From Comamonas kerstersii (GTDB lineage Bacteria > Spirochaetota > Spirochaetia > Sphaerochaetales > Sphaerochaetaceae): a DNA stretch of 24,300 nt. The notes under the pieces were generated by a model. That model did no database searches and was not told where the DNA came from. It saw only the letters and a program-made list of their open reading frames with translations. The stretch is taken from NCBI GenBank assembly GCA_963650055.1, contig CAVJJV010000064.1, positions 1 to 24,300 on the forward strand, given 5' to 3'. This document shows positions 1,229-23,237 of this stretch, piece by piece; position 1 is the first letter of the stretch, and every line of letters starts with the position of its first letter. Made by a program: the position numbers and the translations under genes.

Positions 1229-2236
1229 TCAGATGAATCCCCATGCTCTCATATACTTCGTTATTCCCAGAGCATTGAATACCTCTTTCTTGAAGTAGAA
1301 GAAGGTTTCGTTGAAGAGAGAGATAAGATAGGAGACAGTATCATTCTCTGTCGATAGAGATGTATCCGATGTATATTCAAGGGCTTCCGTGTTTATGTCC
1401 AGGCTGGAGAGGGAGAAGGATCTGAGAGCCCAGAGGGATGGGTCGCACTGGGCTTCGACAACTTCCTCGATGTCATCCGGCAGGGCAGGGAAGAAGTCTA
1501 TCTGTGTTATCTCCTCGACTTCATCGACGCTGAGGGCGAAATACGAGAGGGGTTCGGAGGAGTTTTCGTTCGGCATGATGAACCCTATCGCCTTTATAAC
1601 CGGCTCGGTGTAGTCGAGAATTACCTTATAGAAATACTTCGGGACAGCGACATTGTTCTCCCCGATAGTTTCGTATGGTCCATCGGTGAGAACGGGGCCT
1701 GTTACAACGTATATCTCTTCATCCTCGTATGCAATGGAGCGTACAGCAGACTCGAGGTCGCTCCAGATTCCTGCATTGAAAGCGTGTACCTGGGGACACA
1801 TGTTCGAGAGGTAGAAGGTGTCGCTCATCGCCTCCTCGGACCATCTGAAATCTGCTGCGGGTGCCATATGACCGCGGTCATATCCGCTCTTTCTGTAGTC
1901 TGCAAGTGCAGCGGACCCGGTTGGAATGAGACTGTCGGCCCTGAAATTGTCCTTTCTCTCAGCTGTCTGTGTTATAACCTCATCGCGGGTGAGCGAGTAG
2001 GCGACCCAGTAGGGTACTTCGTACTCTTCAGCATACGAGAGGGTGTATCCCGTATGGGATACGATGATTTCGTCGTTGAAGCCTAGAGGTATTTCCAGGT
2101 TCTCAATCCGTCCTGCGCTCTCGAGAGTCACCTCTCCCTCGGACGGGGTTATGTAGCATAGAACAAGGAAGATGATTATAAGGGAAAGAGCAAGAAGTAA
2201 TATTTTAAGCCATGTTTTCTTTTTCTCTGCTGCCAC
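1229..2236 (-). CDS. Membrane-anchored DNA/RNA non-specific endonuclease (NucA/EndA, His-Me finger)
   Basis: N-terminal hydrophobic anchor; SGYDRGHMAPAAD, TFYLSNMCPQ, FNAGIWSDLE, VPKYFYKV. GTG start with GGAGG upstream. Confidence 0.92.
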   Translation of the reverse strand: MAAEKKKTWLKILLLALSLIIIFLVLCYITPSEGEVTLESAGRIENLEIPLGFNDEIIVSHTGYTLSYAEEYEVPYWVAYSLTRDEVITQTAERKDNFRADSLIPTGSAALADYRKSGYDRGHMAPAADFRWSEEAMSDTFYLSNMCPQVHAFNAGIWSDLESAVRSIAYEDEEIYVVTGPVLTDGPYETIGENNVAVPKYFYKVILDYTEPVIKAIGFIMPNENSSEPLSYFALSVDEVEEITQIDFFPALPDDIEEVVEAQCDPSLWALRSFSLSSLDINTEALEYTSDTSLSTENDTVSYLISLFNETFFYFKKEVFNALGITKYMRAWGFI

Positions 2237-17727: not shown

Positions 17728-19062
17728 TCACCTCCCATCGGGAAGCTCTTTGGCGTATCTATTCATCCTTGCTGCCGTATAGACGGCGGTCAGAGCTTCA
17801 GTCACCGGCATACTCCACCAGAGGGCGGAAGGCGAGAAGAGACGGGGAAGCATAATGATGAGGGCTCCGCTTATGACAAGACCTCTCATCACGGAGACGA
17901 CGAAGGCCGCACGGGGCTTGATTATCGCCTGAAAGTAGTAGGTCGAGAATATGTTGAAAGGAAGAAGGAGGAACGAGACTGAATAGACTCTGATTATACC
18001 GGGGGCCTTGAGGAGAATTTCCTCCGTCGGGTTCATGAAAATTTTTATGTATAGATTCGGGAATGCCAGACTGAGCGCCGTCCAGAAGAGACCGAAGGCT
18101 GCAGTTGAAATGAGGCTGTACTTCAGTGTCTCCTTTATCCTCTCTCCGTTTCCTGCTCCGTAGTTCGTCGACATTATGGGCTGGGAAGCCTGTCCGACGC
18201 TGTATGCAGAGCATTGGACGAATGTGCTTACGTTGATCACCGGGCCGTAGACGGAGAGTGCGGTGGAGCCGAGATATTTCATGATCTCTTTGTTGAAAAG
18301 TATTGTTATAATACCCATTGCTACGTCTATGAAGAAGGTCGGGAAACCCGTCACCGTGATACGGCCGAGTTTACTCCAGAGTCCTGCAGGCTTTGTAATG
18401 CGTAGTGTATTCTTCTTCGAGAAGAAGTGGGTGAGCATGATGAGAAAGGAGATTCCCGAGCCCATGGCGGTTGCAAGTCCCGCTCCGTACATTCCCATAT
18501 TGCACGGAAAGACGAATATGTAGTCTCCCGCAACGTTGAAGATTCCACCTGCAAGGACAGCTGCCGTAGCCTTCCCCGGATCATTGTCGTTTCTCAGGTA
18601 TGCGGCAAGCATCTGGTTGAAGAGAAAGATGGGGAAGACGAACATAATCGGCCTCAGGTAGCTTTCAGCCAGTCCCAGGAGGCTTTCGTCTGCTCCGAAG
18701 AACATGAGGATCCGGTCTTCAAAGAGAACAAACCCTGCAGTAGAGAGAAGAGAGAGGATGACAGAGCCGATGAGAGATGATGTGAAGTACCTGTTGCCGT
18801 CTCCGTTCTCCTCTCCGCATTCTCCCTTCTTGAGGGAGAATATTACACTTCCTCCTATCCCCATCAGGAGCCCCAGGGAGTATATGATATTCCATACCGG
18901 AGCAACGACTGCGAGTGCCGCCGTCCCGTCCGGTCCCTGATACTGCCCCACCATGGCCATATCGACAACGCCGTAGATTGAGCTGATGAATGCACTGCCG
19001 AATGCGGCAGAGAGATACTTGAGATAGAGCGGTTTAATCCTTCCTGTCAAAAGATCATCCAT
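17728..19062 (-). CDS. MATE family efflux transporter
   Basis: About 12 TM segments in two repeats; IYGVVDMAMVGQ, FNVAGDYIFVF..NMGMYGAGLAT, QPIMSTNYGAG. GGAGG SD before ATG 19062. Confidence 0.93.
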   Translation of the reverse strand: MDDLLTGRIKPLYLKYLSAAFGSAFISSIYGVVDMAMVGQYQGPDGTAALAVVAPVWNIIYSLGLLMGIGGSVIFSLKKGECGEENGDGNRYFTSSLIGSVILSLLSTAGFVLFEDRILMFFGADESLLGLAESYLRPIMFVFPIFLFNQMLAAYLRNDNDPGKATAAVLAGGIFNVAGDYIFVFPCNMGMYGAGLATAMGSGISFLIMLTHFFSKKNTLRITKPAGLWSKLGRITVTGFPTFFIDVAMGIITILFNKEIMKYLGSTALSVYGPVINVSTFVQCSAYSVGQASQPIMSTNYGAGNGERIKETLKYSLISTAAFGLFWTALSLAFPNLYIKIFMNPTEEILLKAPGIIRVYSVSFLLLPFNIFSTYYFQAIIKPRAAFVVSVMRGLVISGALIIMLPRLFSPSALWWSMPVTEALTAVYTAARMNRYAKELPDGR

Positions 19063-19082
19063 AAAATATTCCTCCATGAAAT

Positions 19083-19133
19083 AAAAAAGCCGGACAAGAA
19101 ACAGATATCTCAATCTGCGTCTTCTCCGGCTTT
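19083..19133 (-). terminator. Intrinsic terminator in the MATE 5' leader (attenuator)
   Basis: Minus strand AAAGCCGGA-GAAGACGCAGAT...ATCTGTTTCTTG-TCCGGC followed by TTTTTT, about 20 nt before the MATE start codon. Confidence 0.75.
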
Positions 19134-19168
19134 GTCGAATCTTTGTTCAACCTGCCCTCCGAACGAGC
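19128..19168 (-). ncRNA. Candidate riboswitch aptamer (Na+-sensing DUF1646-like) overlapping the leader terminator
   Basis: GGC-AG-GUUGAA-CAAAGA-UUCGAC-AAA-GCC (19156-19128) forms two stems around an AG/AAA internal loop. Its 3' arm is also the terminator 5' arm. The family assignment is from memory of the consensus and is unverified. Confidence 0.5.
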
Positions 19169-19174
19169 ATGAGG

Positions 19175-19225
19175 AGTGTAACTGAAGTGTGGAATAATGA
19201 CAAGTACCGTCTATTTACCTATAAT
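19175..19225. promoter_or_regulatory. Bidirectional promoter (MATE leader / response regulator) with overlapping -35 elements
   Basis: Minus: TTGTCA (19203-19198), 17 nt, TACACT (19180-19175). Plus: ATGACA (19197-19202), 17 nt, TATAAT (19220-19225), 6 nt, ATG 19232. Confidence 0.65.
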
Positions 19226-19231
19226 CCATGT

Positions 19232-19927
19232 ATGAAACTTCTGATAATCGAAGATGAAAAGGGACTCTCGGATGCTCTTGCCCATACCCTCAGGGCGAAG
19301 GGATGGCTTGTCGGGCAGTCTTTCGACGGCCGGAGCGGACTCGAGGAGGCGGAGAGCGGGCTCTACGACCTCATTGTTCTCGACGTAATGCTTCCCTCCC
19401 TCGACGGCTTTACGATACTCGACTCTCTGCGCTCGGACGGAATACAGACACCGGTGTTGATGCTGACAGCCCGCTCTGATCTCAAAAGCCGCATCAAGGG
19501 CCTGAATTCAGGTGCGGACTACTATCTTCCTAAGCCGTTCGACATGGATGAGCTTCTTGCCTGCATCAACGCACTCTCCCGCAGAAGGGAGACTACAATC
19601 GAAACCGGCCTCTCCTATGGCGATATTACCCTGAGAAAGGATGAGGGACTCCTTCTGAAGAACGGAGGGGAGAGCATCAAGCTCAGTGCAAGGGAAATCA
19701 ATCTTCTCGAGATGCTTCTCCAGGCAGGGGGAAGAATCGTGGGTAAGGAGCAGATATTTGAAAAGCTCTGGGGCTTTGAATCGGAATCGGACTACAACTC
19801 GGCGGAGGTCTACATCTCGTTTCTGAGAAAGAAGCTCAAGTACATAGGCTCCTCTACGGAGATAAAGGCCGCAAGAGGAATCGGATATTCATTGGAGAAA
19901 AAGAATGATCAGGGAACTCAGGCGTAA
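19232..19927 (+). CDS. OmpR/PhoB-family response regulator
   Basis: MKLLIIEDE, YDLIVLDVMLP (phospho-Asp), PVLMLTAR, GADYYLPKPF; wHTH EVYISFLRKKL...RGIGY. Confidence 0.95.
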   Translation: MKLLIIEDEKGLSDALAHTLRAKGWLVGQSFDGRSGLEEAESGLYDLIVLDVMLPSLDGFTILDSLRSDGIQTPVLMLTARSDLKSRIKGLNSGADYYLPKPFDMDELLACINALSRRRETTIETGLSYGDITLRKDEGLLLKNGGESIKLSAREINLLEMLLQAGGRIVGKEQIFEKLWGFESESDYNSAEVYISFLRKKLKYIGSSTEIKAARGIGYSLEKKNDQGTQA

Positions 19928-21323: not shown

Positions 21324-23237
21324 ATGAAGAACAGAATCACAACCTTTATATCGATTGTATTGATTGTTTCCATGCTTATGGTTTCCTGTGCAACGGGAGA
21401 CCAGGGAGGAAGTACAAAGCTCAATGGTTCCACGTCCTCGTCTTCAGAAACGGGAACAAGCGGAGATTTCACATCAACAATCTCCGGCTGGATTTCCGAT
21501 GAGGACGCCGTCAGGACCGTCGTACCGGAAGCCGGAGAGACTCCGGAGAAATACAATGCAGACGACTTTACATATAATGAAGAGGAGTATACTGAAGTAG
21601 AGATCAATCTCTCTTCTCTCTCTTCAAGCTATGCCGGCGGCGATATTACGGTTAAAGAGGAAGAGACTCTGACTACGATTACCAACGGTTCCGAAACGAA
21701 ATACAATATCGTCCTCACAGGTGAGAGCACTGTGGGTGTCAAAATCGTATCGAAAAGTGTCGACTACATGCTTACATTGAACGGTGTGACTATCGTTTCG
21801 GCTGACGGCAGCGATGAACAGGCTCTCAATCTCAAGAGTTCCACCACATGCTTCATGGTGCTCGAGGGGACAAATACCCTCACCGGGTGCGCTACTACCG
21901 AGACGAATGCAGTCAAGGCTTCCGGCTCTCTTGTCATCTCGGGCTCCGGCTCCCTCACCGTCAAGGCGGAGACGAAGAACGGGATCGTCTCGGATGATGT
22001 TGTCGTCGTCAACGGCGGTACGATTGATATCACCCTCAACAGCGAAACAAGTGCGGGAACGGGAATCAAACCTGTCAACGGCTACGTCCAGAACGGAGGA
22101 AAAGTTACGATTACAGGTCTCAATATGACCGAGGGATCCGAGAACAAGGGAATCAAGGTCGACGGAGACGAGGATGAAACGGAATACGGTGCAGGCAAGG
22201 GATATATCCTCATCAACGGAGGCGCCCTCACAATCACGACTTCCGGTAAGGGTATGACTGCAGGCTTCGACTACACCGAGGACGGTGACAAAGAGACATC
22301 AGAAAACGACCCCTGGGCTGATGTCTACATCAACAACGGTCTCATTACAATCACCACGAAGGCCGAACCCCGTGAAGATTCCTCCACAGATGAGAATGAC
22401 GGAGTATCACCGGAGGGTATCGAGGGTAAGAGAAAGGTTGTCATAAACGGAGGAAAGATAATCCTCAACACAACCGATGACTGTATAAACGCATCAATCG
22501 ACGGCGAGTGTTCAATCGAGATCAACGGAGGCCTGATCTATGCATACTCCTCGAAGAACGACTCTGTGGACAGCAATGGAACAATCACTGTCAGCGGAGG
22601 TATCCTGATAGCACTCGGTGCCTCTGTTCCCGAAGGTGGAATAGACTGTGATGAGGACAGCCGCTTTACATATACAGGTGGAACAATCATCGCTCTCGGC
22701 GGCACTAACAATCTCCCTCTGACTGCGGAGAGCACAGGATGCTATCTCACAACAGGTTCCTCGATGAACATGGGCGGAGGTCCCGGCGCCGGAATGCAGA
22801 ATCCGTCTGATATGACACCTCCCGATAAGCCTGATGGTGAAGAGTCCGGTACAGCTCCGTATTCAATGGGACAGCCCGGAGAGATGGGTCAGCCCGGACA
22901 AATGGGACAGCCTGGACAAATGGGACAGCCCGGAGAGATGGGTCAGCCCGGTGATATGGGAGGGCTACTCTCTGCAGGGGACACGATAACACTCCTTGAC
23001 AGTGACGGTAATATAATACTTGCCTTCACACTTCCGGAAAATGCAGTCTCTTCAAACATTCTGATTGCATCGGATGAACTCGAAAGCGGCAGCACATACT
23101 TTCTCTCCTCCGATTCGACCGTGAAGAGTGCAGAGTATACCTTCTCCGGTGTGCTCTCTCTCGGAGAAGTGAGTGTGGATGTTGAGTCCTCATCGAGCGT
23201 AACGGTTACAGAAAGGGCCGCAACAATTACATTCTGA
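21324..23237 (+). CDS. Cthe_2159/DUF4353-family carbohydrate-binding beta-helix lipoprotein
   Basis: Lipobox (LMVSC); repeated beta-helix rungs (GSGSLTV, VNGGTIDI, INGGALTI, EGIEGK, DDCINAS, DSVDSNGTITVSGG, GGTIIALGG); very acidic and Ser/Thr-rich; Met/Gly/Pro insert. Confidence 0.85.
   Translation: MKNRITTFISIVLIVSMLMVSCATGDQGGSTKLNGSTSSSSETGTSGDFTSTISGWISDEDAVRTVVPEAGETPEKYNADDFTYNEEEYTEVEINLSSLSSSYAGGDITVKEEETLTTITNGSETKYNIVLTGESTVGVKIVSKSVDYMLTLNGVTIVSADGSDEQALNLKSSTTCFMVLEGTNTLTGCATTETNAVKASGSLVISGSGSLTVKAETKNGIVSDDVVVVNGGTIDITLNSETSAGTGIKPVNGYVQNGGKVTITGLNMTEGSENKGIKVDGDEDETEYGAGKGYILINGGALTITTSGKGMTAGFDYTEDGDKETSENDPWADVYINNGLITITTKAEPREDSSTDENDGVSPEGIEGKRKVVINGGKIILNTTDDCINASIDGECSIEINGGLIYAYSSKNDSVDSNGTITVSGGILIALGASVPEGGIDCDEDSRFTYTGGTIIALGGTNNLPLTAESTGCYLTTGSSMNMGGGPGAGMQNPSDMTPPDKPDGEESGTAPYSMGQPGEMGQPGQMGQPGQMGQPGEMGQPGDMGGLLSAGDTITLLDSDGNIILAFTLPENAVSSNILIASDELESGSTYFLSSDSTVKSAEYTFSGVLSLGEVSVDVESSSSVTVTERAATITF
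22866..22955 (+). repeat. Five tandem 18-nt coding repeats (MGQPG[E/Q/D])
   Basis: ATGGGACAGCCCGGAGAG / ATGGGTCAGCCCGGACAA / ATGGGACAGCCTGGACAA / ATGGGACAGCCCGGAGAG / ATGGGTCAGCCCGGTGAT. Confidence 0.95.

Follow-up and report, generated by a model that had tools for sequence, protein, structure and literature searches.

Several classes of riboswitch, among them guanidine-I to -III and those for fluoride and Li+, act on a common principle whereby binding of a toxic solute to the leader RNA turns on the exporter of that solute, and others, such as the glycine riboswitches and the hairpin pairs of guanidine-II, carry aptamers in tandem. Among the described systems closest to the one considered here are guanidine-IV (the mepA motif) and its Gd4v variant, which are transcriptional ON switches built around a terminator that precede MATE and GNAT genes among others, Gd4v being enriched in gut bacteria and without a known ligand (PMC7736828; PMC9788692; bioRxiv 10.1101/2020.10.21.349134). 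A further relative in general plan, the Na+-I (DUF1646) riboswitch, has two stems, its conserved nucleotides lying at the base of P1 and in the P2 loop (PMC9337991). We have analyzed a stretch of 24,300 nucleotides (nt) comprising positions 1 to 24,300 of contig CAVJJV010000064.1 (assembly GCA_963650055.1, filed under Comamonas kerstersii and placed by GTDB in the Sphaerochaetaceae), hereafter the window, in which the leader of a gene for a MATE family efflux transporter contains a conserved, folded RNA element overlapping an intrinsic terminator. We consider it likely that this leader is a transcriptional ON riboswitch, and a candidate for a class not represented in Rfam 15.

The full element (19167-19115, minus strand) is composed of an outer helix P1, an asymmetric internal loop having (C)GGAG on its 5' strand and GGAGAA on its 3' strand in the window copy, a helix P2 of 3 base pairs (bp; GGC/GCC), and a variable hairpin, P3. 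The outer helix was revealed by folding the nascent RNA, in which the 5' block pairs with the block immediately following GGANAA. A preliminary description of the locus, made from its sequence, had placed the aptamer in a two-stem hairpin; this hairpin exists, as P2 and P3, but it is only the variable inner part of the element, and both P1 and the conserved internal loop had been missed. The accompanying proposal, that the aptamer-like fold and the terminator are mutually exclusive and follow the logic of an ON switch, is borne out by the strand that they share (19130-19115). The 5' arm of the terminator (19133-19113) is made up of the 3' strand of P2, the entire 3' strand of the internal loop and the 3' strand of P1. 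Since the 3' half of the element is thus the terminator 5' arm, the two folds cannot coexist, and P1, whose 3' strand lies within the overlap, takes the part of the antiterminator. The same overlap is present in every homolog, through pairing of GCYGGANAAG with CUUNUCCRG; in the subgroup to which the window belongs, the variable base of the loop is G, opposite a G in the terminator. Nearest-neighbor energies are -12.5 kcal/mol for the aptamer fold, -28.2 kcal/mol for the terminator and -38.7 kcal/mol for the full OFF-state fold. The greater stability of the terminator argues that the default state is OFF, with termination before the Shine-Dalgarno (SD) sequence.

In the mechanism that we propose, transcription would begin a few nt before P1, and the nascent RNA would fold into a long, hairpin-type aptamer consisting of P1, the asymmetric internal loop, P2, a small junction and P3. 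Without ligand, the far more stable terminator would prevail and transcription would halt before the SD sequence. Occupation of the conserved internal loop by a ligand, before the polymerase has finished the 3' arm, would clamp P1 and P2; the terminator would then fail to nucleate and RNA polymerase would continue into the MATE gene. The conserved loop closed by P1 is probably the part of the RNA that contacts the ligand. What we infer is that a ligand binds, that it acts in the ON direction and what kind of molecule it is (considered below); an ON logic suits the exporter of a harmful solute. Two other pairings were tried as conserved components of the switch and set aside. One, between a 5' UCGGA and the UCCGG of the terminator 3' arm as antiterminator, is left uncompensated by UCAGA variants (judged by eye). 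The other, a 5' hairpin GCUC/GGGC seen in the minimum-free-energy structure, is not kept in the L004-type, L007 and L009 leaders (L numbers denote our loci) and may be a local helper of the OFF state in the window's subgroup only.

Folding of the 136-nt leader yields -45.1 kcal/mol, against -31.0 +/- 3.6 kcal/mol for 200 dinucleotide shuffles (z -3.96), none of which folds as strongly; the leader fold is stronger than chance gives. A simple terminator scan returned no site in the leader region, having missed the hairpin because its stem has two mismatches and exceeds the length that the scan counts. Orthologs of the MATE gene, with 71-74% amino acid identity, occur in six genomes of the genus and retain the leader, keeping CUCGU-(U)C-RGAG-GGC and GCC-GGAUAAG-ACGCAG nearly letter for letter. 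Their P3 helices vary by paired substitutions (GUUGAA/UUCGAC, GUCGUU/AACGAC and UCGGA/UCCGA), and the upper stem of the terminator covaries as well (CAGAU/AUCUG versus CAGGU/ACCUG). Across the 20 genus sequences the G, G, A, A and A of GGANAA and the G that follows are invariant; the N is U in most copies, and the core is identical in the aligned homologs. More distant copies alter both strands of P1, which reads CUAGUU/GACU-G-AG in L035 and CGCUC/GAG-A-CG in L038, and GCUAUC/GAUAGC (L040a) and UUCUC/GGGAA (L040b) in the two aptamers of the tandem locus L040. The suggestion of the preliminary description that the leader is a cis-regulatory RNA accords with this fold beyond shuffles and with conservation and covariation in homologs.

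The distribution of the element was assessed at several taxonomic depths. Model R1, in which the terminator was included, gave one forward match in each of 20 of the 81 genus genomes, reduced to 19 after L041 was judged a plain terminator lacking the core; this model also matched the reverse strand of the same hairpins, and the alignment A2 was for that reason unused. Model R2, restricted to the aptamer (53 positions, 13 pairs), matched once in the window's own genome and in 16 of the 151 genomes of a family sample. By eye, L065 and L067 were judged false, as was the match L075 of a class sample, and the true matches fall in six of 30 genera. A search set at order level drew on that family again and contributed nothing further. 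A strict pattern (core, 3' core and terminator foot), run over one genome per species, marked at least 121 stretches in these species-representative genomes (the wide set) and is present in all 80 loci taken with flanks, although one, L133 of Saccharothrix, was dropped as it looks like a chance match within coding sequence. Among the matches listed are many from Lachnospiraceae and Oscillospiraceae. Carriers in the Bacillota include Ruminococcus albus 8, Enterocloster citroniae, Oscillibacter ruminantium, Clostridium vincentii and Ligilactobacillus saerimneri, with Flavonifractor and Megasphaera also listed; in the Bacteroidota they comprise Bacteroides oleiciplenus, Parabacteroides, Odoribacter, Muribaculaceae and a complete Bacteroidales chromosome; and there are metagenome-assembled genomes of Pyramidobacter (Synergistota) and of the Spirochaetales. 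A few bins labelled inconsistently with their sequence, such as the 'Escherichia coli' bin of L137, were given no weight. Overall, these comparisons indicate a conserved, folded leader RNA common to gut and rumen bacteria of several phyla.

Covariation was evaluated mainly in alignment A6, which holds 97 R2-aligned matches, 95 of them distinct. Standard pairs occupy 89.5% of its cells, against 72.2 +/- 0.7% with partners shuffled (85.8% versus 71.1% in an earlier 32-sequence set); its covariation score is 0.473 versus 0.217, with none of 500 shuffles as high, and sliding the partners by 1-3 columns leaves 19-47% paired. Changes on both sides occur in ten of the 13 pairs, including all six of P3. 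In P2, where 98.2% of cells are paired, the first pair is GC or GU and the third CG, UG or UA. Within P1, pair 6-87 is AU in 40 sequences, CG in 18, GC in 6 and other in 30, and pair 5-88 shows six pair types (other, 37). Because A6 is fitted to the model and contains a duplicate and a doubtful row, P1 was also tested without alignment. With the invariant core as anchor, four or more contiguous standard pairs adjoin the loop in 63 of 78 distinct flank pairs, and cognate P1 flanks (114 distinct pairs) average -5.23 kcal/mol versus -4.39 +/- 0.17 kcal/mol when permuted, none of 2000 permutations being as low. By these comparisons, all three helices covary. The inner hairpin recognized in the preliminary description is conserved across orthologous leaders, and its P3 changes are compensatory.

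The element has a constant position relative to promoters. In 70 of the 120 distinct upstream regions of the wide set, a TTGAC starts between 40 and 60 nt ahead of the core; the 40-44 nt bin contains 68 occurrences and any other 5-nt bin no more than nine. This distance, together with a 17-nt spacer and a normal discriminator, implies that the transcript begins at the foot of P1. In the window, the start is expected from promoter spacing at about 19170-19167. The identity of the downstream genes was examined in 77 open reading frames (ORFs), the loci L133 (chance match) and L108 and L150 (short flank) having been dropped from the 80. Pfam MatE is found in 62 of the 77. The other 15 comprise one ABC exporter, one MFS transporter, one GNAT protein, one HD protein, one B3_4 protein, one LytTR regulator, two cytidylate-kinase-like proteins, each with a MATE gene downstream of it, and seven without a family, some of which stem from crude ORF picking, broken genes or an intervening second leader element. 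At 35% identity, the MATE proteins form six clusters, of sizes 29, 27, 3, 2, 1 and 1. The leader is therefore placed before non-homologous genes as well as in distant lineages, as is characteristic of riboswitches. In the Megasphaera locus L144, the motif precedes the MFS gene, and a SAM riboswitch (1773-1872, plus strand; 80.5 bits) lies about 100 nt from it on the opposite strand. Two copies of the motif about 1.6 kb apart on one contig (L091/L092) each precede a different MATE gene.

Since the controlled genes are exporters of the MATE, ABC and MFS families, a GNAT acetyltransferase and a cytidylate-kinase-like protein, the most likely ligand is a small, toxic organic compound that the pump expels. 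A different lead, Ni2+, was followed from the genes adjoining MATE in the window, where the MATE stop overlaps the start of a gene for a HypB-like GTPase (PF02492), followed by HypA (PF01155; together 17731-16610, minus strand). The hypB gene follows the MATE gene in the same-genus loci L004-L008. However, two-component genes and hypB were seen beside MATE only in the window's genus, the flanks from other genera barely passing the MATE gene, and the Ni2+ lead was abandoned in view of this restricted synteny and of the GNAT and kinase-like genes elsewhere, which favor an organic ligand.

Comparison with catalogued RNA families places the element outside them. At gathering level, Rfam 15 has no match in the whole window. 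The preliminary description had looked to Rfam covariance models to identify the leader; at E<=10 no riboswitch family matches in 18950-19350, and the only matches there are microRNA, long non-coding RNA, small nucleolar RNA and CRISPR-repeat models, far under their cut-offs and located on the long hairpin. Twenty diverse homologous loci searched at E<=0.5 likewise gave nothing over the motif. The guanidine-I to -III, fluoride and Li+ riboswitches, which embody the same principle, differ in fold and sequence, and none was matched in the Rfam scans. With guanidine-IV and Gd4v the element shares an ON switch at a terminator and downstream MATE and GNAT genes, but its conserved nucleotides lie in the internal loop that separates P1 from P2, its aptamer uses the terminator 5' arm rather than the terminator loop, and its P3 loop varies in length and sequence; no complement of the terminator loop UGRRAY was seen in P3 (by eye only). 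As to typical genes, sugE is the commonest for guanidine-IV and a PRK07324 transaminase is typical of Gd4v, with MATE and GNAT common to both; the 77 ORFs downstream of the present motif include MATE and one GNAT, and no SMR/sugE and no aminotransferase family. It is by architecture that we set the element apart from these two motifs, the coverage of both by Rfam 15 being unconfirmed. No description of the motif was found in full-text literature, in four motif-discovery papers or in two 2026 preprints, a search lying outside supplementary motif tables, ZWD and subscription journals; the motif is common and clean, and it is possible that specialist groups already know of it. We rate it as a new class within a known kind, the terminator-coupled ON riboswitch.

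Several of the observations made above and in the homologs tell against the riboswitch interpretation or temper its support. P1 in the window is weak, at 6 bp with a bulge contributing about -3.4 kcal/mol beyond P2 and P3. Its register varies by subgroup, C-G adjoining the loop in 49 flank pairs while the other 29 end in U.G one base further out, with the C unpaired. Alignments A5 and A6 were both fitted to the model, so that pair counts lean its way, and A6 includes one duplicate (L091:3218 = L092) and the doubtful reverse-strand row L108:445-512. In the wide set, the search pattern itself fixes the core and the terminator foot, so that conservation of letters there is circular; the genus and family sets alone provide independent evidence of core conservation, and the wide set informs on helices and context. 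The element is also patchy, as the class-level sample gave a match outside the family in one of 150 genomes, which was false by eye. The gene association is dominated by MATE, and is weaker than would be a link to many unrelated families. Finally, the terminator loop UGRRAY occurs in 47 of 78 distinct homologous terminators, including that of the window, and is left unexplained by the model.

The alternatives to a self-contained, ligand-sensing leader are of several kinds. The one favored in the preliminary description was membership in the Na+-I class, in keeping with the small size of the leader, its ON-type overlap with a terminator and its place before a transporter gene, and the MATE family does include Na+-coupled members. 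We attach next to no probability to this assignment. The Na+-I model RF03071 ('Sodium'; gathering score 40.5 bits) gives no match at E<=1 across the whole genome, which is 62% complete. The likeness extends to a short 5' leader, an aptamer whose 3' part overlaps the terminator, and ON logic before membrane transport genes, but both architecture and gene set differ from the published account (PMC9337991): the present RNA is one extended hairpin with a conserved internal loop and a variable terminal loop, and it is associated with MATE, ABC, MFS and GNAT genes in place of the Na+-linked set of DUF1646, napA/nhaD, oadG and ATP synthase. The alternative offered in the event that DUF1646 should fail, a candidate new cis-regulatory RNA, is the one that matches the comparative data. 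Attenuation by ribosome stalling on a leader peptide would call upon the mini-ORF MLVRRAG, which is present in the leader (19170-19147), and drug-induced stalling is known to control some resistance genes. We find it highly improbable here, in line with the earlier view that it was the less likely mechanism: the mini-ORF has no SD sequence, its AUG lies 4 nt past the -10 box, no further downstream than the expected transcript start, its start is replaced in orthologs by TTG, CTG or nothing with neither frame nor stop kept, and distant homologs share no such ORF.

Two further explanations retain the terminator overlap and dispense with sensing by the RNA. In protein-dependent antitermination, an RNA-binding protein would recognize the GGA-containing internal loop and stabilize P1 and P2. 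Both conserved strands of the loop do include GGA, as do sites recognized by CsrA-type proteins, and a protein site would account for the structure and its covariation no less well than an aptamer. However, CsrA (PF02599) is encoded in only one of five motif-bearing genomes, and was not found in the complete 3.3-Mb Bacteroidales chromosome, B. oleiciplenus or R. albus 8; no neighboring gene is common across genera, within the short flanks available from other genera; and the occurrence of the element with different MATE subfamilies in several phyla is more easily explained by a self-contained sensor. We regard such a protein as an unlikely basis for the switch. The competition between fold and terminator could also be ligand-independent, set by transcription speed, nucleoside triphosphate levels, Mg2+, temperature or pH, a proposition consistent with the fact that overlap of antiterminator and terminator is directly apparent while ligand binding is deduced. 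Yet across phyla ten or more loop nucleotides show little or no change, whereas the surrounding helices vary freely, a constraint that a mere competing helix does not need, and the existence of tandem aptamers and of a loop variant is as in known ligand-sensing classes. A plain attenuator of this type seems to us rather improbable, and a ligand-responsive riboswitch remains our preferred account of the leader.

Like the known tandem-aptamer riboswitches, some homologs have two aptamers, although the window copy has one. In this tandem form, found at L039, L040, L060, L123, L143, L161, L184 and L192, an upstream aptamer without its own terminator is followed by a second that runs into the terminator. 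A relative with 60% identity (L009/L039) has two successive cores, of which only the second reaches the terminator, and in the tandem subfamily both P3 loops are CGUA; in Bacillota copies, P3 loops are often C-N-N-R-G-A. There is, in addition, a variant element, GUCAUC-GGAG-GA..hairpin..UC-GRRRAA-GAUG, with a GC-rich terminator of its own. It follows a complete standard switch in L061, L091, L100, L106 and L128, preceding in those five loci a MATE or cytidylate-kinase-like gene, and occurs also in L132; Rfam shows nothing over it in L091 and L100.

Somewhat short of an even chance, in our estimation, is the broader interpretation that these RNAs constitute an undescribed riboswitch class, widespread among gut and rumen bacteria in at least three phyla, which turns on MATE exporters, occasionally those of the ABC or MFS type, and modifying enzymes in response to a specific toxic small molecule and has diversified into tandem forms and a GRRRAA variant that may read a second ligand. 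A gut xenobiotic is one possibility for the molecule, a natural antibiotic-like compound another. If so, the class would be an orphan beside the guanidine, fluoride, Li+ and Na+ riboswitches for toxic solutes, the GRRRAA variant and the standard switch in series would provide two-input control, and the compact ON switch of about 55 nt would be usable as a sensor. Few bacterial MATE exporters have a known natural substrate, and a shared leader points to one common physiological substrate or signal. Since MATE genes from six sequence clusters and several phyla have this leader in common, the RNA offers a handle for compound screening, for which cultivable carriers exist (Ruminococcus albus 8, Bacteroides oleiciplenus, Enterocloster citroniae and Clostridium vincentii); the tandem and variant forms could serve, as naturally occurring examples, to examine how aptamers alter dose-response and specificity.

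The features of the leader are collected in Table 1. They lie inside the 170-nt gap that separates the MATE start (19062) from the divergent ATG of a response-regulator gene (19232), and the promoter (TTGTCA-17-TACACT), the inner hairpin (19156-19128), the long terminator with its U6 tract, the SD sequence and the mini-ORF were all found as the preliminary description gave them. In a promoter scan, the MATE promoter scores 9 of 12 consensus matches, and the 700 nt scanned contain two promoter-like sites against 0.7 +/- 0.9 in shuffles. The MATE protein (P0003) matches PRK09575 (7e-55) and TIGR00797 matE (4e-40) among NCBIfam models, both under the curated cut-offs.

Table 1. Features of the MATE gene and its leader in the window, in window positions
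Feature	Position	Strand	Basis or remark
-35 box TTGTCA of MATE promoter	19203-19198	-	Sequence; TTGTCA kept in same-genus orthologs
-10 box TACACT	19180-19175	-	17-nt spacer from -35; TAGACT in most orthologs
Mini-ORF ATGCTCGTTCGGAGGGCAGGTTGA	19170-19147	-	Sequence
P1 5' strand CUCGUU	19167-19162	-	Pairs with 19121-19115: 6 bp, one bulged C
Invariant C	19161	-	Directly after P1 5' strand
Internal loop, 5' side, GGAG (family RGAG)	19160-19157	-	G, A, G invariant in 20/20 genus sequences
P2 5' strand GGC	19156-19154	-	Partner is 19130-19128
P3 variable hairpin GUUGAA-CAAAGA-UUCGAC	19151-19134	-	Folding; compensatory changes in homologs, all 6 pairs
Intrinsic terminator hairpin	19133-19086	-	RNAfold, hairpin alone: -28.2 kcal/mol
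P2 3' strand GCC, doubling as base of terminator 5' arm	19130-19128	-	Folding
Internal loop, 3' side, GGAGAA (family GGANAA), within terminator 5' arm	19127-19122	-	Conservation
P1 3' strand GACGCAG, doubling as middle of terminator 5' arm	19121-19115	-	Folding
Terminator terminal loop UGAGAU	19112-19107	-	Sequence
Terminator U6 tract	19088-19083	-	Sequence
Shine-Dalgarno GGAGG of MATE gene	19075-19071	-	Sequence
MATE start ATG	19062-19060	-	Sequence
MATE family efflux transporter, 444 amino acids (P0003)	17728-19062	-	NCBIfam

The divergent response-regulator gene (OmpR type, P0001; ATG at 19232, plus strand) has no SD sequence. Only 6 nt separate its ATG from the end of a promoter-like site, ATGACA-17-TATAAT (11 of 12 matches; region 19197-19234, plus strand), and for this reason its mRNA is probably leaderless. 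The -35 box of this site overlaps that of the MATE promoter back-to-back, and GATTATA is kept in same-genus orthologs. Elsewhere in the window, a 637-amino-acid protein (21324-23237, plus strand) carries a Cthe_2159 carbohydrate-binding domain and a weak match to collagen repeats.

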